From contig CP013062.1 in NCBI GenBank assembly GCA_001430755.1, forward strand, positions 150,001 to 182,000: 32,000 nucleotides of DNA, in the 5' to 3' direction. Both the position numbers and the translations under genes were made by a program. Origin of the DNA: Candidatus Peribacter riflensis. GTDB lineage: Bacteria; Patescibacteriota; Gracilibacteria; Peribacterales; Peribacteraceae. Below, one piece after another: positions 6,314 through 28,901 of the stretch (position 1 is its first letter; every line of letters begins with the position of its first letter). A model generated the notes under the pieces. That model searched no databases, had not been told where the DNA came from, and was given only the letters and a program-made list of their open reading frames with translations.

Positions 6314-8638
6314 GTGCGACGGGTGTTCCCCCTCTTTCTCCTCGGCCTGCTCGTCTCTGCGGCGTCTGCCCAGTCAGAGCCGTTTCTGGATACTGTCCAT
6401 CATCCGCAAGCCGGACCGATCGAGGAGTTGAGAACGCGCGGCATCGCGCAGGGGTACGGCAACGGCATCTTCCGTCCCGATACTCCTATCAACCGTGCCG
6501 AGTTTTTAAAACTTGTCACACTTGCGGTGTTCGGGCGGATGTATGTGACTGATACGACAGCGTGCTTCGCCGATTTCCAGGACGAGGTGCAGTGGTACTG
6601 GATGACTGCGTGCGTGGCGAAGGAGGCCGGTCTCATCGATGGGTATCCCGACGGCACCTTTCGCGGCGGGCAGACTGTGAATCTGGCCGAGGCGCTGAAG
6701 ATGGCCGAAATGGCCTGGCAGATGCCGCTGCCGCAGTACTTTCGCGAGCCTGATCACTGGTATGACCCGTTCTTCGATGCCGTCGCGGACCGCGGCATCG
6801 CGGAGTACTTTCTGCACACTCCCGGCCATCTGCTCACGCGGGGGGACGCCGCATGGCTTCTCGTCGCTCTCGGGCAGCCCCTTGCAACTGTCGAGCAGCG
6901 CGCTTCATCCCGCTCGTCGGCGTTCTCGACATCCTCGGTTTCTTCTCCCTCCATCCACGGTGTCTGCGGTAATGGTCGCAGAGAGGGCACGGAGCAGTGC
7001 GATGACGGCAACCGCGAAGATGGCGACGGCTGCAGCTCCATCTGCATCATCGTTCCTGAGACGATTCAGCATTCCGCGATTCGCCTGGACCAGCGCTCTC
7101 TGGGCGAAGACACGCGCGCCGGCGGCTCCAGCCAGACCGTGCTCTTCTCGTTCGACGCCAATGCGCGTTGGCAGGATGCCATCCTCACGGGTCTGAAGCT
7201 CGAAGCGGAACTGGGAGCGCTCAGCGCAGCCGTGAACTACCGACTCTATGAAGATGTTGACGGTGATGGGCGTCCGGAATCAATCGTGGGATCGGGGATT
7301 GTGCGGGAGGGCGTGCTCTCGTTCTCAGGGCTGGATGCGCGCATTTTCATCATTCGCGGAAAACGTTTCGAGATCCGCGCCGATCTGGTGCAGGCGGCGG
7401 GGAGTGTGGCGCTCGGTTTCCGCACGACGGATTCTGCGTACGTGGAGGCCGTGGGCGCGCTCGACGGGCGCGAGCTCATTGGCATCCGGACCGATGACGG
7501 CGGATGCCCCCGTACGGACAATTGCTGGATTGCGGTGTACACCAAGGAATCTGAGACCGTCACCGTCGCCGAGCGCGGCAATCTGTTCGTCCGTGAAGCC
7601 ACCGCGCCGACGCGCAGCCATCAGCTCCTTGCCGGAGGCAAGACCGGCGATCTGCTGCGCTTGAGTTTCCGTGCGACCGATGAGGAGATCACCGTCCGGC
7701 GCCTGGCGATTCGCGGGGCGACGGATGCTGTGGAGCAGATTGAATTCTACGATCCGGGCATTGCCACGCCGTTCGCCATCGCGCACACCTCCGGATGCCG
7801 GACCCCCGCGACCGGCCAGTTCTGCACCTCTGTGAATTTCTCGGTGCACAAAGACATTGTCCGCGATGTGATCGTGCGCGCGGTGCTCAAGCCTGCCGAT
7901 GACGGGGCAGTGAGCGGCGATGCCGTCACCCTCATGCTGACGCCCGGCACGTCCGTCTCTGATCCGGCCGTGGAAGCCACGGGCGTGGCCTCGCAGGAGG
8001 ACCTGGTGCAGAACGACGGGGATTTCAGCGCAGAGGGCGAGATCTTCATCGGACGGGCAGCCGCAGGGGGAAACAACGCCATCGAAAGTTCCACGCATGA
8101 TGTCGTGCACAGCGGCATCGCGAGCATCACCAATGCCGCGACTGAGTTCGACGGCGCGGTGGTGCCGACAGGGCTGCGCACGTTTGGCTCCTTCCGTTTC
8201 CGGGCGCACGAGAAGCCGGCCACCGCCCGCGGATCGCGCTCGGTCCATCTGACGGACCTCACCTTCGATGTGACGGCGACGAGCGTGCGCTTTCAGACCG
8301 GCAGTTTCGTCCTCATCAATACGATTGCGCCCACCATCGCTTCCACCTGCACCGAAACGGGCATCACCGGTGCCTTCACCGTGACGTGTTCTGCATTTGT
8401 GGCAGAGGGGGTGCATGCGATCATTCCCTTCGGAGACTACGTGACGCTGGGGTTGCGGGGCTACATCGAGAGTTCCAAGACCGTTCCATCCGGAACGAGC
8501 ATGCTGCAGGTGAGCCTGGTGAATTTCAATGACCGTAGTGCGGCGGGCAGCGTGGTGTGGAATGACGGCACCACCACGTTTGAGTGGGTGGATAGCGATG
8601 CATCCGATGTACGCTCCACGCTCTATCAAACACCGTAA
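6314..8638 (+). CDS. large secreted SLH-domain protein with a Myxococcus-type cysteine-rich repeat
   Basis: GTG start with signal peptide MRRVFPLFLLGLLVSAASAQ. N-terminal SLH-like repeats are present (GYGNGIFRPDTPINRAEFLKLV; GYPDGTFRGGQTVNLAEALKMA). It contains CGNGRREGTEQCDDGNREDGDGCSSIC. The long beta-rich C-terminal region belongs to no family I recognise. Confidence 0.9.
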   Translation: MRRVFPLFLLGLLVSAASAQSEPFLDTVHHPQAGPIEELRTRGIAQGYGNGIFRPDTPINRAEFLKLVTLAVFGRMYVTDTTACFADFQDEVQWYWMTACVAKEAGLIDGYPDGTFRGGQTVNLAEALKMAEMAWQMPLPQYFREPDHWYDPFFDAVADRGIAEYFLHTPGHLLTRGDAAWLLVALGQPLATVEQRASSRSSAFSTSSVSSPSIHGVCGNGRREGTEQCDDGNREDGDGCSSICIIVPETIQHSAIRLDQRSLGEDTRAGGSSQTVLFSFDANARWQDAILTGLKLEAELGALSAAVNYRLYEDVDGDGRPESIVGSGIVREGVLSFSGLDARIFIIRGKRFEIRADLVQAAGSVALGFRTTDSAYVEAVGALDGRELIGIRTDDGGCPRTDNCWIAVYTKESETVTVAERGNLFVREATAPTRSHQLLAGGKTGDLLRLSFRATDEEITVRRLAIRGATDAVEQIEFYDPGIATPFAIAHTSGCRTPATGQFCTSVNFSVHKDIVRDVIVRAVLKPADDGAVSGDAVTLMLTPGTSVSDPAVEATGVASQEDLVQNDGDFSAEGEIFIGRAAAGGNNAIESSTHDVVHSGIASITNAATEFDGAVVPTGLRTFGSFRFRAHEKPATARGSRSVHLTDLTFDVTATSVRFQTGSFVLINTIAPTIASTCTETGITGAFTVTCSAFVAEGVHAIIPFGDYVTLGLRGYIESSKTVPSGTSMLQVSLVNFNDRSAAGSVVWNDGTTTFEWVDSDASDVRSTLYQTP

Positions 8639-11017: not shown

Positions 11018-12397
11018 ATGAGCAGGCGCAATGATCATTGGTCTTTGGGATGCATTACGCTCCTCTGCGGGCTTCTCTTCCCTTTCACGTTCGCGCAGGC
11101 CGCGAGTGCTCCGCCATTCCCGGACATGGCGAACTCGTGGTACGGCTACCAGGAGAGCACTCAGTACCTCAAAGACAAAGGCTCCATCGGCGGGTACCCC
11201 GATGGGCTCTTTCACCCCCAAGACACGGTCAACCGTGCGGAATTCCTGAAGCTCGTCTTCCGTTCGAAGGGAGCCGCGGAACCGGTCACGGAAGATTGCT
11301 TTGCCGATGTTCCGTCCGATGCGTGGTTCGCGCCGTTCGTGTGCGCGGCCAAGCGGCGTGGAATTATCCAGGGCTACACTGTGGGCTCCCGCCAGGTCTT
11401 CAAGCCGGAGCAGCCGATTAATTTTGCCGAGGCCATCAAGATGGCGGTGCTTTCGTACGGCAGCGAAATTGCCGAAGGCAGCGGCGAAAAGTGGTATCAG
11501 CCGTACGTGGATGAGCTTGATGCGAAGAAGATCCTCGCAAGCTGGTCGTACATTCCGTGGGCTCCCATCACGCGCGAGCGCGCCGCCGACCTGATCGCGC
11601 GTTACGTGCGGCACGATGAAGATCGCGTGCTCCCCCATCTCTCTCCCGGATGCGGCAAATCCGAACGCAATCCTTCGCTTACGCTCACTGTCGGGGGGCA
11701 GGAGAGAACGTATCTGCTCACGCAACCCTCCCATGCCAGTACCTCTACCCCTTCGACGCTCATCGTCGCGTTTCACGGCCGCACCAACGGTAACGCGCAG
11801 GTGCGCGCTTACTTCGGCTTAGACCGCTCTGCATCCGATTCCTTCATCGCCTACCCGTCCGGTATTCCCAATGGCAACGGCAGTTACTCGTGGTCTGACC
11901 CCGGCGACAAGGCACAGGAACTGCGCGACTTCGCGTTGTTTGATGCCATCGTGCGCGAAATCGGCGACAGTGCGTGTATCGACTTAGACCGCATCTACGT
12001 CGTCGGGCATTCGTTGGGCGCGTGGTTTGCCAATTCCGTCGCGTGCGCGCGCGGGGGAGTGGTGCGCGCTTCGGCAACAGTGGGCGGGTCCACGACCATG
12101 AAGAATTGCACGGGTCCCACGGCCGCGCTGATCATCAATAATCCCAAAGATACGCTTTCGTCCCATGTGGCTGCGGAGGCCATGCGCGATATCCGCATCG
12201 CGGCGAATACGTGTTCGCCAAAGAGCGCAAAAACGGAGCCTTCATCCCTCTCGTGCATGCAGTACGCCGATTGTCCGCTCAATCCCGTGGTCTTCTGCCC
12301 GCATACGATCGACCGGGATCGCCATGGCACGTACTACCCGCACCTGTGGCCGGATGGTACCGCGCAGGCGATGGTGAAGTTTTTTGAGGGGTTGTAG
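11018..12397 (+). CDS. secreted SLH-domain protein fused to an alpha/beta-hydrolase (PHB-depolymerase/esterase-like) domain
   Basis: Signal peptide followed by SLH-like repeats (FPDM...GYPDGLFHPQDTVNRAEFLKLV; FADV...GYTVGSRQVFKPEQPINFAEAIKMA). The C-terminal half has LIVAFHGRTNG and the nucleophile elbow GHSLGAW. Confidence 0.88.
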   Translation: MSRRNDHWSLGCITLLCGLLFPFTFAQAASAPPFPDMANSWYGYQESTQYLKDKGSIGGYPDGLFHPQDTVNRAEFLKLVFRSKGAAEPVTEDCFADVPSDAWFAPFVCAAKRRGIIQGYTVGSRQVFKPEQPINFAEAIKMAVLSYGSEIAEGSGEKWYQPYVDELDAKKILASWSYIPWAPITRERAADLIARYVRHDEDRVLPHLSPGCGKSERNPSLTLTVGGQERTYLLTQPSHASTSTPSTLIVAFHGRTNGNAQVRAYFGLDRSASDSFIAYPSGIPNGNGSYSWSDPGDKAQELRDFALFDAIVREIGDSACIDLDRIYVVGHSLGAWFANSVACARGGVVRASATVGGSTTMKNCTGPTAALIINNPKDTLSSHVAAEAMRDIRIAANTCSPKSAKTEPSSLSCMQYADCPLNPVVFCPHTIDRDRHGTYYPHLWPDGTAQAMVKFFEGL

Positions 12398-12501
12398 TAG
12401 GATTGAATATCCTCTGTTGAATCGCACCGACGAAAAAGCATATTTTTAATTACTGTCTAGAAAGATAGACAAGGTAGTGACTTGGTTCGATTGTTTAGCA
12501 C

Positions 12502-12825
12502 ATGCAAACCACTCAGCAAGAGATCGAAAGAGTACTTGAGAAAGTACAGATTATGTCCCTTCCAGAGAATGAACATATTTTTGATTTACATGTTCATGAA
12601 GAGAATAACATTTGGTTTATTGGCGGATGCGTTGGACCGTATGCGCACACCCTCGCCGACGGACAACCATATCCAGTACTGTGTCCATTACCTGTGTCTG
12701 ATTTAGAATTTACATCGAAAGAGGAAGCACTTGAATTTGCACAAGAGGTACACGATGTTTTGTTCGAGAGGGGGCTGGAACCCGATGCATCTACCTTTCG
12801 CCTTCTTGAAAGACAGTCTGTCTGA
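12502..12825 (+). CDS. hypothetical protein (107 aa), island-encoded
   Basis: This is the only sizeable ORF in this stretch and I recognised no family. A nested hairpin ending in a T-run follows it. Confidence 0.5.
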   Translation: MQTTQQEIERVLEKVQIMSLPENEHIFDLHVHEENNIWFIGGCVGPYAHTLADGQPYPVLCPLPVSDLEFTSKEEALEFAQEVHDVLFERGLEPDASTFRLLERQSV

Positions 12826-12883
12826 AGAAGGTGAGACACAGTTGCGGCAGGAGTAACGGCCAGAGAGGACGTGCTTATTTACC

Positions 12884-12958
12884 GGAAGATGCTTCACGCT
12901 TACGTTTCCGATTTTCAGTGGAGATACAATAATCGGAAGGCTTCACAGCATCTTTTTT
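12884..12958 (+). terminator. nested stem structure ending in T6, a terminator-like element
   Basis: The outer stem pairs AAGATGCT (12886-12893) with AGCATCTT (12947-12954). The inner stem pairs TTCCGATT (12906-12913) with AATCGGAA (12931-12938). TTTT follows. Confidence 0.4.
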
Positions 12959-13020
12959 GATCTGCTCCCTTCACGCGTGTTGTCGCGGCAAGCTCTAGGA
13001 GCTTGAAAAACTGATTACGG

Positions 13021-13416
13021 TTAGTCTTCATGTTTTTCAGGAAGCAGTCCTACTGAATCTCCGCTAAACAGCCAATTTACTACTATATATGCTAGTCCAA
13101 GTACCTTTGCCAAATTTTCAGTAATTAAAAGACCAATAAGCCACTTGGCACCTTCATCTTGTGGCGCAAATACTCCAACTCCAATTAGGGGAATCATTAC
13201 CATGTCGTAAATCACGATAAGAACGATGCACAATAGAATCCAACCAGACCATTTCTTTCTCATTGCGATAATGTCTTGTTTTTCTTGTGCAAGAAGCATC
13301 GCAGTCATCCTTCTATCTTCCAATTGAGAAAAGAGGGTAACGGGTATGGTTGGTGTCATACTTCTTTTTGTACCCAAGAGTTTAAGCGCCTCATTTTTTG
13401 TTGGCAGTGAATTCAT
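13021..13416 (-). CDS. small membrane protein (131 aa, 2-3 predicted TM helices), translationally coupled to the ImmA-like gene
   Basis: Hydrophobic segments WILLCIVLIVIYDMVMIPLIGVGVF and WLIGLLI...LGLAYIVVNWLF. Its ATG at 13416 overlaps the upstream TGA (ATGA overlap). A GTG at 13422 is an alternative start. Confidence 0.7.
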   Translation of the reverse strand: MNSLPTKNEALKLLGTKRSMTPTIPVTLFSQLEDRRMTAMLLAQEKQDIIAMRKKWSGWILLCIVLIVIYDMVMIPLIGVGVFAPQDEGAKWLIGLLITENLAKVLGLAYIVVNWLFSGDSVGLLPEKHED

Positions 13417-13940
13417 ATCCACTTCAGTCTAAATTTGATAACATCAGTGGATACGCCAAATATACCAGCTAAGAGTTCTTGATCTGCGTCGGTCTTATTA
13501 AGACTATATTGCTTCATGATTTTTTTGAGCATATCTAGTGGAACCAATAGACTCGCAGCAAAACAATTCGCCTCCTTCTCTATTGGATTATCTTCTTTTG
13601 GACGTGGATACCTTGGTAAAACTCCATACTCATTTGGTTTATGTCCTAGAATAAAATGACCAAGTTCATGAGCAATAGTAAAAGTTTGTCTATTTGGTGG
13701 GTCTGCACGATTCACAAAAATGATCTTTTGTTCTGGATCAAAGAAGCCAGCAACATCTCTCAATGTTTCTGGAAACTGAAGTACTTTCACAGTTAGGCCA
13801 TGTTTTTCTGCAAGACGGGTAATTGGAATTATTGGTTCCTCAATTTCATACTGCCGCAAAATTTCAGCAGCCTTATCTTTCGCCATATCGTATCGAGGTG
13901 AAAGAATAGCTGTCATATGCGCAAAGAATCTCACATTCAT
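13413..13940 (-). CDS. ImmA/IrrE-family (COG2856) zinc metallopeptidase
   Basis: The HEXXH motif HELGH lies at 13656-13670 in the context FTIAHELGHFILGH. The family-typical EKEANCFAASLLVP lies downstream. Alternative ATG starts are at 13916 and 13886, and the track start at 13961 is TTG. Confidence 0.88.
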   Translation of the reverse strand: MNVRFFAHMTAILSPRYDMAKDKAAEILRQYEIEEPIIPITRLAEKHGLTVKVLQFPETLRDVAGFFDPEQKIIFVNRADPPNRQTFTIAHELGHFILGHKPNEYGVLPRYPRPKEDNPIEKEANCFAASLLVPLDMLKKIMKQYSLNKTDADQELLAGIFGVSTDVIKFRLKWI

Positions 13941-14120
13941 ACAACTAGCACAAACTGACAATCATCTTATTTAGTATGAAAAGTATTGTTTTAGGTGCCA
14001 GTAATGAGTTTATGCAACTGTTGATCCTAGTCATAAAGGGGTAGTTACCTATTTACTTGGGTCCCAGACAGGGTTTTTTGAAGGTTGGGTTTTAGGAATG
14101 GGAGGGCAAGACGGTCGGGA

Positions 14121-15785
14121 TCAAGCAAAACAACCCTTTAGATATTCAATAAAATTAATCGCCTTTAGAAGTATCCGCTCAAACCCTATTTGGTATCCAA
14201 CTTTGTCGATGCCGAATTTCTTTAACAAAGCATCATATTCTTTGCCCTTTTTATGTGCCGCCCCTTTTGATCTTAGCTTCTGCAAATCACGTAGGAAGGA
14301 AATATGCAATTCGGCATCAGCACAGCTTTTTTCAGACATAAAACGAGAAAGCCATGTGATGCTTCCTTGTTTTTCTTTATTAATGTATTGCCGAGAACAG
14401 TGCTTGATCAATTCTTCTATATTGATTGATTCGATCAGGACGTGAGCCAATGACAAAATTTGATTATCAAATTCTGCCTGCGTATTTCGCAGAGGAATGT
14501 GCAGCGAATTTAGATGATGCGCATCCTTCTTCGGTAACTCTCCGAATAATTCCCAGCTGTTCTTCTCCTCCCAATCCTTTCTAAAAATTGAAAACCTATG
14601 TCTGAAAAGGAGGTCCGCTTTTTCTGGCTCTGAAAACTGCGCATAAAAATCTCTTTTCAACGATGTCTTGCTGATTGCTTCACCTGGAACGACATTGTGC
14701 GCAAGCCAATGAGCATGATCTTCAAAAGGAAGATCACGTCCCAGATCACCTAAATAAGCAGAAACATAATTTTTGAGATTGTTATCAATGTACATGCTCC
14801 ACATATGACCACAGGTGAGATGTCCATCGTGAACGGTGTATTTCGGGTCATTATAATACTTTTCCAACACTTCTCGCTTGAAGAACACCCGCGTGAGATA
14901 TTGGGGAGCATCAGGATTGGCACCGAAAAAATTTCCAAGCATATGGTGATTGCATGTGTATGACACAGGATCACCGTTTTCGTCTGTTTTAATTACATAC
15001 TTGGGATATTCTCGCTCCTCTTCCTCATCCTGTTTATAAGGCCAAATTCCGCTTTTCTCTTTGGGTAAACCAGTAAGAATTACTTTTCCGATCATTCTTG
15101 AAAAACTTGCTCGTGTATCCCCTCCGAATTTGTCCCGCCACGTCATACAAGTAAATGAAAACCGAGCACTGTCATTCGTATGTTCAAAGGCGATACGATC
15201 TTCATCGATGCCTAATTCTTCCAGGGTCTTATATGACCATCTGCAAAAAGTAAAACATAGGCACAAAGCCATGTCCTTGATCCCGAGAAATTGCCTAACT
15301 TGTTTCAGATGAGCACCAATGTAATCACCATTCATCTTTACTACATCTTCCAAATCTCCATTGTCTAAGACTTTTTGAAACGTGTTTTTTTGTTCATCAA
15401 AAAATAGATTGTGGTAGAGACGAAACTCCTCATTTAGTTCTTTGTATCCGTCTTTTACACCACCAAAGTCCCTTTCGATAATTAGTGGTTCATAATCATA
15501 AAAACTGCCGAAACGCTTGTACTCGATGGTTCCCCTTTTTCCTTTGGTAAACCCAACACAGCCTGGTTGACCATCTATCGAACAATCATGCCAATCCGAA
15601 CGCTTAAGTTCTTCGGGAATTCGTGAAGTAGGAATCATGCAGCAGTGAAACAAAAGATCATCAACTAGCTGCCTACTCTCCCGTCTTTCTCTTGAGTCAT
15701 GCAAGGTAAGCCATTGCTCTGTGCGCATTTTATTCAATACATACTCACGAAGATCCTCTTGGAGTAACCATGACTTGTCGCTCAT
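14121..15785 (-). CDS. large uncharacterised protein (554 aa) with a C-terminal HEPN-like Rx5H motif
   Basis: Long, clean AT-rich ORF. The C-terminal helical region contains LQKLRSKGAAHKKG, with the R and H codons at 14271-14273 and 14253-14255. His/Cys clusters occur at CNHHMLGNF and VHDGHLTCGHMW. I recognised no family for the first roughly 450 aa. Confidence 0.85.
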   Translation of the reverse strand: MSDKSWLLQEDLREYVLNKMRTEQWLTLHDSRERRESRQLVDDLLFHCCMIPTSRIPEELKRSDWHDCSIDGQPGCVGFTKGKRGTIEYKRFGSFYDYEPLIIERDFGGVKDGYKELNEEFRLYHNLFFDEQKNTFQKVLDNGDLEDVVKMNGDYIGAHLKQVRQFLGIKDMALCLCFTFCRWSYKTLEELGIDEDRIAFEHTNDSARFSFTCMTWRDKFGGDTRASFSRMIGKVILTGLPKEKSGIWPYKQDEEEEREYPKYVIKTDENGDPVSYTCNHHMLGNFFGANPDAPQYLTRVFFKREVLEKYYNDPKYTVHDGHLTCGHMWSMYIDNNLKNYVSAYLGDLGRDLPFEDHAHWLAHNVVPGEAISKTSLKRDFYAQFSEPEKADLLFRHRFSIFRKDWEEKNSWELFGELPKKDAHHLNSLHIPLRNTQAEFDNQILSLAHVLIESINIEELIKHCSRQYINKEKQGSITWLSRFMSEKSCADAELHISFLRDLQKLRSKGAAHKKGKEYDALLKKFGIDKVGYQIGFERILLKAINFIEYLKGCFA

Positions 15786-15791
15786 GTGTCA

Positions 15792-15818
15792 ATTATAGGG
15801 CACATGGGTCACATGCCC
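15792..15818 (-). promoter_or_regulatory. TATAAT box 6 nt upstream of the ATG, plus an adjacent imperfect palindrome (possible operator)
   Basis: The minus strand reads GGGCATGTGACCCATGTGCCC-TATAAT-tgacac-ATG. In the 21-nt palindrome, 7 of 10 positions are Watson-Crick pairs and 1 is a wobble pair. Confidence 0.4.
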
Positions 15819-15822
15819 ATAG

Positions 15823-15839
15823 TGGCTGGGGAGGAGGGA
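15823..15839 (-). repeat. 17-nt perfect copy of the tRNA-Gln 3' end (att-like remnant)
   Basis: TGGCTGGGGAGGAGGGA is identical to 17385-17401. That stretch covers the CCA, the discriminator, the 3' acceptor strand and the 3' T-stem strand of tRNA-Gln. Confidence 0.85.
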
Positions 15840-15868
15840 AAAGCAGACCGTTCCGCATGTTTCGTTCT

Positions 15869-17296
15869 TCAGCTCCCGTACCGGCTGCGGAGCAGAACAT
15901 CCTGCCAGTTCATTTCGTAGAATTCCTTGGTCGCCGAAGTCTCCCGCGCTTTGTTCAGCCACTCCTGCCATCGTTCATCGGCTTGCGGCTGCGTGCTTTC
16001 TTCGAGGACAAGGCCGTACACATCACCCGAGAGCATTTTCAGCTCCAGCATGTCGATGCGCGAAGTCGGCAGCGCGGCCAGTCGCCGGTTCAGCCGGAAG
16101 ATCGCCTGCTCCACGGGGAACACGGTCGCCACGGCGTACATCCAGACAAACGCGACCACGATGAACTTCACCATGTCGGGTTTGCCCTTCTGAAAGAGCG
16201 CCGCAATCAACCGGACAAAGAGGAGGATCGAAAACAGCACGGTGTAGAGCGCGAAGAACTTTTCGTAGCTGAAGCCGTAGGTGTACACGTACATGCCCAT
16301 GCGGTTGGCTGCCGAGAACAGGAGCAGGAGCGACGCGACCATGAATACCATGAGGATGTGCTGCACGGGCCGGGCCGTCCGGCGGTAGTAAATGAGAAAG
16401 AGCAACGCGTTGATGCCGCTCAAGAAGAAGAGCTCCCAGAAGCCGTTTTTCACCAGCCGTTCCGTTTCGAGGAACTCCGTCGGAAGCGTCGGCACCCACA
16501 GGGAGGAGAGTTGCGTGAGGAGGAAGAGGATGTAGAGACCGAGCACGCCCCCCAGGACGATGCCGGAAATAACGCTGTCCATGGGCTTCATTTGCGTCGA
16601 TGCGAACGTTTCCTCCCGTGTCCAGCGGACGATGCCGGCGAGCAAGAGGAGCGTAAGCAGGACAAAAACGCCGAAGCGCACCAGTGTTTCCACAGAAATG
16701 ATTTTCAGCAACGGTTCGTAGACCTGCCGGACCAGTTCGGCAAAGCGCGCATCAGCGTCGGAGAGGAGCGGGATGAAGATGAGGCAGGCCACAACAGCAA
16801 AAATCACCACACCGATTGCGATGCGCTTGTGCAGGTCGGACCGCTTGTTGCCGGAGGGCAGAACGCTCCCGATGGTCAGTGACACGGCTGTTGCCAGCGC
16901 GCTCACGATCCCGACGAAACGTTCAACGATCCTCAGGAGCCAGCTGATATTCCACACGACGCTTTGGGAGTTGCGCGTCGAAGACACGATCCATGCGGCT
17001 GCGAAAAGCGTCGGCACGACCAGGCAGTTCACCAGTTTGATGTACGGGTTTTCGTACAGGGCATAGCTGACCGCAATCAATCCCAGCGGTATGAGAAAGA
17101 GCAGGTCCGCCCGTTGCCACGTTCGTTTTTCGGACGCGAAGGCATAGATCGCCATGGCGCCCACAATGAACACGGATATATTCCAGCCGAATGCCGAGAC
17201 GTCTTTCTCCCAGACATTCCACGCGGTCAGCACCCAGAAGAGGGAGAGCGCCAGCGCACCGTAGACGGTCATTCTTTTCCGCCAAGAAGCATCCAT
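15869..17296 (-). CDS. polytopic membrane protein (475 aa; DUF4153/DUF4173-like is my guess)
   Basis: Many hydrophobic helices. The ORF track extends it to 17644, but that extension reads through tRNA-Gln. The first ATG downstream of the tRNA is at 17296 (MDASWRKRMTVYG...). Confidence 0.8.
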   Translation of the reverse strand: MDASWRKRMTVYGALALSLFWVLTAWNVWEKDVSAFGWNISVFIVGAMAIYAFASEKRTWQRADLLFLIPLGLIAVSYALYENPYIKLVNCLVVPTLFAAAWIVSSTRNSQSVVWNISWLLRIVERFVGIVSALATAVSLTIGSVLPSGNKRSDLHKRIAIGVVIFAVVACLIFIPLLSDADARFAELVRQVYEPLLKIISVETLVRFGVFVLLTLLLLAGIVRWTREETFASTQMKPMDSVISGIVLGGVLGLYILFLLTQLSSLWVPTLPTEFLETERLVKNGFWELFFLSGINALLFLIYYRRTARPVQHILMVFMVASLLLLFSAANRMGMYVYTYGFSYEKFFALYTVLFSILLFVRLIAALFQKGKPDMVKFIVVAFVWMYAVATVFPVEQAIFRLNRRLAALPTSRIDMLELKMLSGDVYGLVLEESTQPQADERWQEWLNKARETSATKEFYEMNWQDVLLRSRYGS

Positions 17297-17384
17297 GGAG
17301 AGGGAAGGAAAGAAGTCCGATGGTAGCAGCGTTGGAGGTGTGGTGCTATGTAGTTCCCGAGCGGGAACGAGGAACGAAGCCGGA

Positions 17385-17459
17385 TGGCTGGGGAGGAGGG
17401 ATTCGAACCCCCGAATGCCTGCTCCAGAGGCAGGTGCCTTACCACTTGGCGACTCCCCA
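17385..17459 (-). tRNA. tRNA-Gln (anticodon CTG), CCA encoded
   Basis: The minus strand reads TGGGGAG-TC-GCCAAGTGGTAAGGC-A-CCTGC-CTCTGGA-GCAGG-CATTC-GGGGG-TTCGAAT-CCCTC-CTCCCCA-G-CCA. This is the same architecture as E. coli tRNA-Gln, including the U1-A72 pair. Confidence 0.93.
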
Positions 17460-17526
17460 ACGTGAAACGATGATAGCAGGAATGGGCTCTCGCCCGCCGT
17501 AGTCCCGCGAAGCGGGCGAAGGTGGG

Positions 17527-17537
17527 CTCCCCAACGT
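17527..17537 (-). repeat. 11-nt repeat of the tRNA-Gln 5' junction
   Basis: CTCCCCAACGT at 17527-17537 equals 17453-17463, which comprises tRNA positions 1-7 plus 4 upstream nt. The spacing is 74 nt. Confidence 0.7.
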
Positions 17538-17656
17538 ATGCAGGAGGATAGCAAAGCCTGCTCTGTGTGGAAACGACTCATAGGTTTTTCTTCCCGGCTT
17601 GTTTTCTTCAGAGCTGAGACAGGATCTCTTTCATCCGTTCCCACGCCGCATTCCGC

Positions 17657-18094: not shown

Positions 18095-18754
18095 GTTCTA
18101 GAGTGCCTTCAAAAAGGGGATAAGACGCCTTGCGGGAGCTCAAGGAAAAGATATACAATGTGCACGTATCCATACGAATTGGGATCCGAACGGCCCCGTG
18201 CCTAAGGAGCCCTTTTCTTTAAGGTAAATGCAATTTTGGCTTGGATGCCGGGGTTTTCCAGATAATCAAATAATTCCGATCCGAGTTTGCTATACAGAGA
18301 GGAGGCAAATTTTCTATCCGGAAAAAGTAATTTCTTGAACATTCCTTTCTGAATCAGAAAATCAACAACTTTTTTATAATCGCCGTCACCTGAAACAAGG
18401 AGCACCTTATTGAAATCTTTTCTCTCAATGATTGTTTTCATGATTTCAAAAACGATATCGGTATCGACATTGCCTTTCTTGGTGCCTTTCAGGGTGGAGA
18501 TATGTTCTTTGAACAGGACGATGAAGCCTGCCTTTTGCAGATTGCTGTAGAGACTCTGTTGTTCTTCCGAAACGTAACCGAGAAAATAGTAGGCCTCATC
18601 CACCTGATATTTATCCTTCAGATATATCCTGAATTTCGCATGGTCGACCTTCCAGCCGTTCTGCGTAGTGCCGAGGTGTAGGTTTTGCCCGTCAATGAAC
18701 GCAAGATTCGATTCCTTCTCCATGCGGGGATTTTATCACACTGTCACGCCGGGA
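18095..18754. mobile_element. 660-bp AT-rich insertion carrying only an NYN-domain gene, bounded by 32-bp direct repeats
   Basis: Perfect direct repeats flank it. Composition shifts sharply by eye. The target gene's 3' end was replaced and the displaced tail is retained. No recombinase is present. Confidence 0.6.
18202..18723 (-). CDS. NYN-domain (LabA/DUF88-like, PIN-like fold) putative RNase
   Basis: LAFIDGQNL, KGNVDTDI and LLVSGDGDY match the acidic motifs of NYN/LabA domains. TGATAAAAT lies 6 nt upstream of the ATG. Confidence 0.88.
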   Translation of the reverse strand: MEKESNLAFIDGQNLHLGTTQNGWKVDHAKFRIYLKDKYQVDEAYYFLGYVSEEQQSLYSNLQKAGFIVLFKEHISTLKGTKKGNVDTDIVFEIMKTIIERKDFNKVLLVSGDGDYKKVVDFLIQKGMFKKLLFPDRKFASSLYSKLGSELFDYLENPGIQAKIAFTLKKRAP

Positions 18755-28456: not shown

Positions 28457-28901
28457 GAATTAGGAATTATGAATTATGAACGAAGCACCCATGCCTATTG
28501 CATCTCCCAGCACCGCGTCGGAAAAAATCAGAGTCTTCACGGATCTGTTTTCCTGGCAGGATGCCCATAAACTTGTTCTCATGATTTACAGAATCACAAG
28601 GAAGTTCCCAAAAGATGAAATGTTCGGATTGGTTGCCCAATTGCGCCGGGCGGTCGTTTCTATCTCATCCAATATCGCTGAGGGATTCAGCAGGATCTCC
28701 TACGCGGAGAAAATTCATTTTTATTCGATCGCTCTCGGATCCGTGACGGAAGTGCAGAATCAGATGCTCATCGCGCGGGATGTCGAGTATGTTGCCCAAG
28801 AAGATTTCATGTCTGTGGAGAAGCAGAGTGTCAAAGTACATAAGCTCATCAACGGCCTGATCAAATCCAGTCGATCATTCTTAATTCCTCATTCCTAATT
28901 C
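28457..28901 (+). mobile_element. IVS-like cassette: four-helix-bundle gene bounded by 24-bp imperfect inverted repeats, inserted between atpD and atpC
   Basis: Left arm GAATTAGGAATTATGAATTATGAA (28457-28480). The reverse complement of the right arm (28878-28901) is GAATTAGGAATGAGGAATTAAGAA, giving 21/24 identity. The arms start 1 nt after the atpD stop and enclose the ORF's start and stop codons. The segment is AT-rich relative to the operon. Confidence 0.5.
28476..28898 (+). CDS. four-helix-bundle protein of the 23S rRNA intervening-sequence protein family
   Basis: FSWQDAHKLVLMIYRITRKFPKDEMFGLVAQLRRAVVSISSNIAEGFSR...ALGSVTEVQNQMLIA matches the family pattern (W-Q-A, FPK.E..GL..Q.RRA..SI..NIAEG). 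Confidence 0.92.
   Translation: MNEAPMPIASPSTASEKIRVFTDLFSWQDAHKLVLMIYRITRKFPKDEMFGLVAQLRRAVVSISSNIAEGFSRISYAEKIHFYSIALGSVTEVQNQMLIARDVEYVAQEDFMSVEKQSVKVHKLINGLIKSSRSFLIPHS

Follow-up and report, generated by a model that had tools for sequence, protein, structure and literature searches.

Tyrosine integrases that target the 3' ends of tRNA genes are known from genomic islands and prophages, such as the Yersinia high-pathogenicity island at tRNA-Asn with its 17-bp repeats, and from the P4-like elements. Cis-mobilizable elements (CIMEs), described in the ICESt1/ICESt3 family of streptococci, are remnants of integrative elements that are still flanked by attachment (att) sites and have no recombination genes of their own. 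Free-standing GIY-YIG homing endonuclease genes are also found beside tRNAs, as with SegB in the tRNA cluster of phage T4. Here, we compare with these systems a 17-nt direct repeat of the 3' end of tRNA-Gln(CTG) in Candidatus Peribacter riflensis, a bacterium of the Candidate Phyla Radiation (CPR), together with the DUF4153 membrane-protein gene that the two copies bracket and the AT-rich island that lies beyond the distal copy. The stretch analyzed, called the window hereafter, comprises 32,000 nt of contig CP013062.1 (positions 150,001 to 182,000), is numbered from its first letter, and is 100% identical to CP013064.1, the complete 1.25-Mb genome of Candidatus Peribacter riflensis. A reading of its letters by a model, the original prediction below, had proposed that the tRNA-Gln locus has been an integration site. 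Related loci, which carry L numbers, were fetched from genomes and metagenomes with the DUF4153 protein as the query. The features at issue are the following.

17385-17459, minus strand: intact tRNA-Gln(CTG) gene with encoded CCA, the attL-like end (ARAGORN; Rfam tRNA, 63.2 bits)
17385-17401, minus strand: proximal repeat, the last 17 nt of the tRNA, TCCCTCCTCCCCAGCCA in the tRNA sense
17297-17384, minus strand: 88-nt spacer between tRNA and DUF4153, putative element-side flank of attL (alignment with L020)
17343-17358, plus strand: hairpin GTTCCCGAGCGGGAAC within this spacer
15869-17296, minus strand: gene for a DUF4153 polytopic membrane protein of 475 aa (Pfam PF13687, E=1.7e-34)
15843-15856, minus strand: terminator-like hairpin of DUF4153, with a T-run that reaches the first base of the distal repeat
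15823-15839, minus strand: distal repeat, an attR-like displaced tRNA 3' end with 17/17 identity in the same orientation
15819-15822, minus strand: CTAT (tRNA sense) directly past the distal repeat

The locus resembles tRNA-integrated islands in that an intact tRNA stands at one end and a direct repeat of its 3' end, from T-loop to CCA, at the other. The repeat is of similar length, and variable, horizontally acquired DNA is present at the locus. It differs from such islands in that an integrase is absent from both the window and the related loci, and in that the repeats bracket a single compositionally native gene whereas the island of foreign composition lies outside the pair. CIMEs share further properties with the locus. 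The DUF4153 segment lies between attL-/attR-like repeats without an integrase or excisionase, tandem arrays with other att-bounded segments occur in relatives, and movement would presumably depend on an enzyme supplied in trans. In contrast to CIMEs, the cargo of the DUF4153 cassette is one conserved membrane-protein gene, and no cognate autonomous element was identified in Peribacteraceae. A CIME-like, att-flanked non-autonomous cassette appears to be the described category closest to the feature in the window.

Our preferred reading, which we hold with a probability of roughly 0.55, is that the repeat is an att-type duplication formed by recombination at the tRNA-Gln(CTG) 3' end, and that it flanks a CIME-like DUF4153 cassette that was exchanged via these sites. 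Site-specific recombination of the tRNA 3' end, from T-loop to CCA, would have given rise to the 17-nt duplication. The intact tRNA with its element-type flank would then correspond to the attL-like end and the displaced copy followed by CTAT to the attR-like end, and the 1.56-kb cassette between them would carry DUF4153 with its own upstream region and terminator but no recombinase. The tRNA-Gln/DUF4153/repeat arrangement would be old in Peribacteraceae, with the repeat decayed in most lineages and perfect in P. riflensis. In the preferred course of events, a DUF4153 cassette would have been excised to leave tRNA-CTAT and a cassette from another lineage re-inserted, moved by an enzyme that is encoded elsewhere and acts in trans; such an exchange would be the reason why the repeat is perfect.

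The starting point for this reading is the repeat itself. The 17-mer TGGCTGGGGAGGAGGGA is present on the plus strand at both 15823-15839 and 17385-17401, and these are its only matches in the 32-kb window when both strands are searched and up to three mismatches are allowed. Dinucleotide shuffles gave a mean of 0.11 matches at the same tolerance of three or fewer mismatches, and a composition-based estimate for a perfect second copy in 64 kb (both strands) is ∼1e-5. A chance origin of the repeat was ruled out by the shuffles and the lack of near-copies in the 32 kb. The tRNA placement by ARAGORN and Rfam bears out the original prediction that two identical 17-mers in the same orientation are complementary to the tRNA-Gln 3' end including CCA. 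Read as its complement, the repeat spans the tRNA from the last base of the T-loop through the 3' strands of the T and acceptor stems to the discriminator and CCA, and its identity breaks exactly at the CCA end (TCCG versus CTAT) and at the T-loop (TTCGAA versus GCTTTT). The window tRNA-Gln is 100% identical to the tRNA-Gln of the relatives L005 and L008.

DUF4153 is the sole gene between the repeats, and its GC content of 0.58-0.59 is equal to that of the flanks and genome, in keeping with the earlier description of the interval as holding one GC-rich polytopic membrane-protein gene. At its 3' side, the segment bounded by the DUF4153 stop codon and CTAT, which includes the repeat (about 15819-15868), can be aligned with its counterpart in L020 (p∼0.003), where the repeat is partly deleted. 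Decayed copies that end in CAGCCA were found 3' of DUF4153 in L005, L008, L009, L029, L030, L033, and others. By these alignments, the distal copy and both of its flanks are orthologous to the degenerate copies 3' of DUF4153 in relatives, and the site thus predates both the lineage split and the species-specific island. At the other side, the 88-nt spacer aligns with the L020 flank past the distal repeat of a GIY-YIG cassette (p∼0.003) and not with the tRNA-proximal flank of L020 (p∼0.8), which argues that the spacer is sequence of the type that lies beyond an inserted cassette. The last ∼45 nt of the spacer are conserved upstream of DUF4153 in L007 and L009. CTAT follows the copy in L020 and L005 as well, and the intact tRNA of L033 continues into CTATCTCGGAGTG...; this is suggestive, though not proof, that CTAT at 15819-15822 represents the first bases of the native tRNA-Gln(CTG) downstream flank.

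The related loci reveal that copies of this kind recur. A free copy was defined as a match of at least 15 of 17 positions to the last 17 nt of the local tRNA, and non-redundant related loci were counted. By this measure, free copies of the local tRNA 3' end accompany seven of 16 tRNA-Gln loci as compared to two of 37 other tRNAs. In L031, tRNA-Gln(TTG) and DUF4153 are followed by a 20/20 copy, GAATCCCTCCGCCCCAGCCA, of that locus's own variant end, so that the architecture of the window appears again (p<0.005). The L020 copy, CCTTCCTCCCCAACCATTC, contains both variant bases of the local tRNA-Gln(TTG), and the copies in L108 and L112 likewise track the local tRNA variant, in unrelated genomic contexts. 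L009, L020, L035, L108, and L112 each have a GIY-YIG cassette, 354-391 nt in length, between tRNA and copy, and L005 has a 1.2-kb AT-rich islet with a gene for a MerR-HTH (helix-turn-helix) protein between two copies. These counts and the variant-tracking copies mark the tRNA-Gln 3' end as a site of recurrent recombination or insertion in Peribacteraceae, which supports the proposal that the tRNA-Gln locus has been used for integration. The comparison with related genomes uncovered abundant polymorphism of both repeat and gene order. Within the 32-kb window and the fetched loci, the 17-mer does not behave as a generic repeat, and the extra copies are largely specific to tRNA-Gln.

Between two of the relatives, L005 and L033, an exchange of flanks can be seen. 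The native junction of L033 consists of an intact tRNA followed by CTATCTCGG.... The tRNA flank of L033 and the flank of the detached copy in L005 are identical at 51 of 58 positions, including the tRNA end, and in L005 this stretch is inverted relative to the tRNA. The CTATCTCGG... flank has 37 nt in common with the L005 copy. Inversion by recombination between the tRNA end and an inverted copy explains the relationship of L005 to L033. A single inversion of this kind was also considered as the cause of the tRNA orientation flips and was rejected, as it cannot yield the co-directional arrangement of the window. The original prediction had called for empty-site versions of the locus in relatives. 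In L033, the tRNA is joined to its native flank, of which only the 4 nt of CTAT are shared with the window, and no empty site was found within the species, where 14 loci are identical.

A separate line of evidence comes from the DUF4153 alleles. The window allele is 79-82% identical to those of L007, L008, L009, and L020 and 56-59% identical to those of L004 and L005, yet L004 and L005 are the closer relatives of the window by housekeeping genes. Identities to the window for individual loci are as follows.

L005: BipA 93%, DUF4153 56%
L007: BipA 86%, DUF4153 80%
L004: SLH459 89%, DUF4153 59%
L008: SLH459 81%, DUF4153 79%

There are accordingly two DUF4153 allele classes whose distribution conflicts with the housekeeping genes, and this discordance indicates that the gene has been exchanged horizontally. 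Cassette replacement via the flanking sites would provide a single account of the allele discordance, the perfect repeat, and the retained CTAT. Under the preferred reading, specific junctions can be predicted. The empty site, with the tRNA joined to CTAT, would read ...GGTTCGAATCCCTCCTCCCCAGCCA directly followed by CTATGGGCATGTG, and the circle would read ...GGAACGGTCTGCTTT, TCCCTCCTCCCCAGCCA, and TCCGGCTTCGTTCC in succession (i.e., GTCTGCTTT plus the repeat plus TCCGGCTTCG). Both predicted junctions are searchable in existing deep metagenomes. A scan of IMG/VR for the 17-mer and the two junctions returned only tRNA-Ser in jumbo-phage tRNA arrays, which has no bearing on excision.

Several observations weigh against the exchange of an att-flanked cassette. 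There is no integrase in the window, and XerD is the sole tyrosine recombinase listed in the accessible part of the annotation table for a P. riflensis genome (PMC4736985 supplement). Apart from XerD, that part of the table has one transposase (K07488) and two large proteins matched weakly to 'integrase catalytic subunit' as its recombinase or transposase entries (PMC4736985). The native-flank match between the window and L033 amounts to only the 4 nt of CTAT. The duplication itself is old, given the degenerate orthologs in relatives; for a divergence of 15-20%, chance retention of a perfect 17/17 copy has a roughly estimated probability of 2-6%. With its host-like GC, the bracketed DUF4153 gene could simply be resident, and in distant CPR bacteria DUF4153 is common beside tRNAs without any repeat. 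The orientation of the tRNA relative to DUF4153 varies among lineages. Lastly, the 14 same-species loci (from NCBI, JGI, and Logan assemblies and several samples) share 100% identity throughout the region and all carry both copies; no empty site or excised form was found among them. DUF4153 is linked to tRNA-Gln across the family and is thus not obviously a foreign, recent element. It is possible to explain the perfect 17/17 copy by chance retention, by constraint from overlapping signals, or by renewal through recombination.

The alternative that survives best is that the repeat is an old, immobile relic, the product of one ancestral duplication in Peribacteraceae whose copy stayed perfect in P. 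riflensis by chance or through its overlap with the terminator T-run and promoter edge. This is possible, if on the doubtful side. It would account for the degenerate orthologous copies with the same flanks 3' of DUF4153 (L020, L008, L009, L005, L029, L030, and L033), for the lack of polymorphism within the species, and for the placement of the distal copy exactly between the terminator-like hairpin of DUF4153 and the promoter-like site of the neighboring 554-aa protein gene. A relic does not, however, explain why L031, L020, L008, L108, and L112 have perfect copies of differing local tRNA variants, which imply that new copies arise repeatedly, nor why the DUF4153 alleles are phylogenetically discordant. 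A structured RNA at the distal copy does not lend it support either, as the region folds no more stably than shuffled sequence (z=-0.46); an Rfam scan of the repeat and of the spacer upstream of the tRNA detected no known RNA family.

The second alternative, serial integration, was the mechanism put forward in the original prediction and involves the AT-rich island past the distal repeat. The features of the island are the following.

12403-15818, no strand: AT-rich island, whole (GC profile)
15792-15819, minus strand: promoter-like site of the 554-aa protein gene (TGGGCA-16-TATAAT, 10/12), starting 4 nt past the distal repeat
14121-15785, minus strand: AT-rich gene for a 554-aa protein with a C-terminal HEPN-like Rx5H motif (R505/H511)
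14064-14114, no strand: 51-nt GC-richer element that splits the island into two modules (blastn against L005 and L022)
13413-13961, minus strand: ImmA/IrrE-type metallopeptidase, Peptidase_M78 (Pfam E=1.3e-23; PADLOC CapP/RmrA-like; PHROG metalloprotease)
13021-13422, minus strand: 133-aa predicted membrane protein whose gene overlaps the end of the peptidase gene (no family match)
12502-12825, plus strand: 107-aa open reading frame at the left edge of the island

In windowed profiles, the stretch between about 12500 and 15800 has a lowered GC of 0.37-0.46. To the left, the island is bounded 5 nt past the stop of an SLH-domain gene (11018-12397), and homology to L004 ends at 12402. The right edge is the CTAT beside the distal repeat; the AT-rich DNA begins 4 nt past the distal copy, which places the island start essentially where it had been predicted. 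According to the serial scheme, the AT-rich island would have integrated first at tRNA-Gln and DUF4153 later, after which the integrases and the far-left att copy were lost. The island's position against the distal repeat and its foreign composition fit such a history, as do the L005 AT-rich islet, which really lies between two copies, and the tandem arrays of tRNA, cassette, copy, DUF4153, and decayed copy in L009, L020, and L031. We nevertheless consider serial integration unlikely. Local alignments of the repeat with the flanks located no third copy near 12400 (all p>0.6), as had been remarked before, and those with the entire tRNA, the SLH-gene 3' end, and the termini of the island were likewise at background; the island has no terminal direct or inverted repeats. 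CTAT, read as native flank, lies between the repeat and the island, and the island therefore falls outside the att-bracketed interval. A core-like element of 51 nt interrupts the island, and DUF4153, which on this view is the younger insert, has native composition and conserved synteny. No recombinase domain was found by Pfam in the window genes, in agreement with the original statement that no integrase is present. The further idea that an integrase was lost is an assumption that the relatives do not favor, as about 20 related repeat loci have no adjacent tyrosine integrase. What stands of the serial scheme is that tRNA-Gln serves as a recombination site; entry of the island through this att site is not demonstrated by the evidence.

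We conclude that the island is separate, composite, and species-specific, with defense-like cargo in a variable hot-spot that starts 4 nt past the repeat. The 554-aa protein has no sequence match in Pfam, PADLOC, or the PDB, but R505 and H511 of the Rx5H motif are invariant in 33 homologs. Homologs with ∼40% identity come from Bacillota, Chloroflexota, Planctomycetota, Actinomycetota, and the archaeon Methanothrix, and their scatter indicates that the gene is horizontally spread and defense-like. The family is widespread and unannotated, with 384 database clusters at E≤1e-5 from bacteria and archaea, and one homolog is named 'ApeA N-terminal domain-containing' in UniRef. The predicted structure is confident (predicted local distance difference test score of 87), and its best PDB fold match is a partial one to the defense protein Avs3 (E=1e-3). 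The position of the ATG at 15785 suggests a leaderless mRNA. Together with the adjacent ImmA/IrrE-type protease, the 554-aa protein could form a candidate defense or toxin module. The 51-nt element is conserved over 41-51 nt at other positions in L005 (16266-16314, 82%) and L022 (9816-9856, 90%), and its presence within the island points to a composite origin. Its neighbors in these relatives are a cold-shock gene in one and the upstream region of DUF4153 in the other.

Equivalent slots in relatives hold other genes, namely a 177-aa AT-rich gene in L020, an NYN nuclease region in L008, an IS1595-type transposase with an ATPase/STAS-like pair in L004, and an IS200-type gene in L007. The slot past the repeat thereby resembles tRNA-adjacent defense islands and hot-spots, since it contains lineage-specific, mostly AT-rich, defense-like cargo (e.g., a HEPN-like protein with an ImmA protease, NYN nucleases, a MerR-ATPase pair, and insertion sequence elements). 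Unlike such islands, the one in the window is without mobility genes or bounding repeats. Two side observations concern the surroundings of these slots. In L004, the last 60-69 nt of the SLH-domain gene, the ortholog of window 11018-12397, are present as three tandem copies (6542-6600, 6712-6779, and 6907-6975) at the edge of another AT-rich island with the IS1595-type transposase, an arrangement reminiscent of serial insertion at a gene 3' end. In addition, the AT-richer NYN-domain gene upstream of the tRNA (window 18202-18723, with a downstream region at 18112-18201) is relocated between relatives; in L008, the gene and its downstream region are inverted and lie directly past the decayed repeat that follows DUF4153 (6604-7236).

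Two further readings rest on the GIY-YIG cassettes of the relatives, located as follows.

L009, 990-1383: GIY-YIG cassette
L020, 952-1359: GIY-YIG cassette
L035, 5958-6360: GIY-YIG cassette
L108, 3960-4330: GIY-YIG cassette
L112, 3958-4333: GIY-YIG cassette
L111, 3796-4316: GIY-YIG cassette, with a degenerate duplication
L095, 1970-2287: GIY-YIG cassette at tRNA-Trp

In these relatives, GIY-YIG genes of 76-108 aa lie directly past the CCA of tRNA-Gln(CTG), tRNA-Gln(TTG), and tRNA-Ser. The ends of the cassettes, TTCTGCTTCGC...GCGAAGCAGA, are inverted, and in each case 16 nt of the tRNA end are duplicated, though the duplicate is degenerate in L111. L095, from another CPR lineage, has a cassette at tRNA-Trp with a 21-nt repeat and without the TTCTGCTTCGC/GCGAAGCAGA ends. 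Taken together, and judged by their sequences, the cassettes look like a mobile-element family, and a literature search returned no description of GIY-YIG cassettes at tRNA ends. They are similar to SegB-type genes in that small GIY-YIG genes are found directly past tRNA-Gln, tRNA-Ser, and tRNA-Trp in varied genomic contexts. They are dissimilar in that the terminal inverted repeats and 16-nt duplication are not a product of classical homing, and in that the proteins, at only 76-108 aa, lack a DNA-binding domain. A search with the L009 GIY-YIG protein gave 47 homologs, none of them assignable to P. riflensis; the four that are named belong to other Peregrinibacteria/Peribacteraceae. By supplementary file 2 of the genome study, P. 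riflensis has a gene for an 86-aa GIY-YIG protein directly past tRNA-Ser (PMC4736985).

From these cassettes a broader scheme can be drawn, which we regard as improbable, wherein a CPR cassette family inserts at the CCA end of tRNAs and duplicates 16-21 nt, with the GIY-YIG elements being autonomous and the DUF4153 unit being moved in trans. Within this scheme, the autonomous members may be the ∼370-nt elements at tRNA-Gln and tRNA-Ser, the tRNA-Trp cassette may be a further member, and the mover in trans may be, for instance, the P. riflensis GIY-YIG protein encoded past tRNA-Ser. Were it true, a tiny GIY-YIG nuclease would drive insertion in a transposon-like or homing-like manner.

The narrower version, in which the repeat in the window is the footprint of an element that inserts past CCA, duplicates ∼16 nt, and has its GIY-YIG gene lost or supplied in trans, appears more doubtful still. 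The cassettes of 354-391 nt with inverted ends and a 16-nt repeat at tRNA-Gln(CTG), tRNA-Gln(TTG), and tRNA-Ser provide the precedent, along with the 21-nt repeat in L095. In L031, the order of tRNA, GIY-YIG gene, 119-aa gene, DUF4153, and perfect copy places such a gene within the repeat-bounded segment, and the P. riflensis protein gene past tRNA-Ser (PMC4736985) shows that the species has one. In the window itself, the first 10 nt past the tRNA, TCCGGCTTCG, match the left end of the cassettes at 8/10 positions. That match is weak, however, and the right end, GGTCTGCTTT, is wrongly oriented. The window has no GIY-YIG gene between its repeats, where only 88 nt separate the tRNA from DUF4153, and it has no inverted terminal repeats around DUF4153. 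Furthermore, the repeat is 17 nt rather than 16. We know of no nuclease of this small GIY-YIG type that makes such duplications.

Almost no credence can be given to the last alternative, in which the plus-strand copy is a functional complement of the tRNA, similar to a primer-binding site, that pairs with the mature tRNA-Gln 3' end and is kept by selection: in both the window and L031 the identity does stop precisely with CCA, and the copies do track the local tRNA sequence, but in L020, L008, and L009 the identity extends 1-3 nt beyond CCA into the genomic flank, the copies lie at the boundaries of inserted DNA, and a retroelement primer-binding site was rejected as there is no Rfam match and no reverse transcriptase domain or other retroelement feature in the window.

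Knowledge of mobile elements and of gene flow in CPR/Patescibacteria is sparse, and the words 'integrase', 'island', 'mobile', 'transposase', and 'recombinase' are absent from the main text of the published analysis of five complete Peribacteria genomes. Against this background, exchange of the DUF4153 cassette would mean that a conserved membrane-protein gene can occupy an att-bracketed, integrase-less cassette whose alleles move between lineages, next to a slot that gathers defense-like cargo. For the window itself, the scar is of a familiar type and its impact is moderate. The most promising by-product is the set of GIY-YIG tRNA-end cassettes in the relatives, which are a lead to a possibly undescribed insertion mechanism.

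A number of minor observations were made on the same genes in other genomes. In distant CPR bacteria (L046-L105, many loci), DUF4153 is very often found downstream of a tRNA on its own strand, at a distance of 70-650 nt, in what amounts to a conserved linkage; the tRNA can be tRNA-Trp, -His, -Lys, -Met, -Cys, -Asn, or -Gln. The notion of DUF4153 as a general tRNA-end cassette was rejected on the grounds that no repeat of the tRNA end is found 3' of DUF4153 in these distant CPR bacteria. L022-L024, from another Peribacteria species, have a large serine recombinase gene beside tRNA-Gln. It lies between perfect 79-nt inverted repeats, and the first of these begins within the last 6 nt of tRNA-Gln (L022 3740-8780 and L024). 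Beside the GIY-YIG cassettes, this recombinase is the second lead to an enzyme that might act on the tRNA end. An apparent presence/absence of this recombinase between L022 and L023 was dismissed as a gene-calling difference only, with identical DNA. In L022 and L024, an adjacent 3.2-kb segment that encodes a 928-aa surface-type protein lies between 145-nt inverted repeats and is inverted between strains. A gene for a '23S rRNA-intervening sequence protein' (PF05635) is located in the window at 28476-28898, in a stretch of GC 0.48 between ATP synthase genes, and a homolog adjoins the tRNA-Ser/GIY-YIG cassette in L111.

Two further observations touch the tRNA-Gln gene of the window. Three independent metagenome contigs of the same species, L013, L016, and L017, end at window positions 17475, 17418, and 17414, inside or just past tRNA-Gln, which may reflect branching of the assembly graph at the repeated tRNA sequence or unassembled variation. 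Upstream of the gene, a partial second copy of the tRNA 5' end and promoter (CTCCCCAACGT...GATAGCA) is present at 17527-17553 on the minus strand, the functional copy being at 17453-17478. The partial copy repeats 7 nt from the start of tRNA-Gln together with 4 upstream bases and the GATAGCA box, which is promoter-like, and lies ∼66 nt upstream of the real tRNA. The spacer between the two is rich in hairpins. L007 shares this arrangement, with compensatory hairpin changes. The partial copy may have been left by a rearrangement at the 5' end of the tRNA, or it may be a small structured element.

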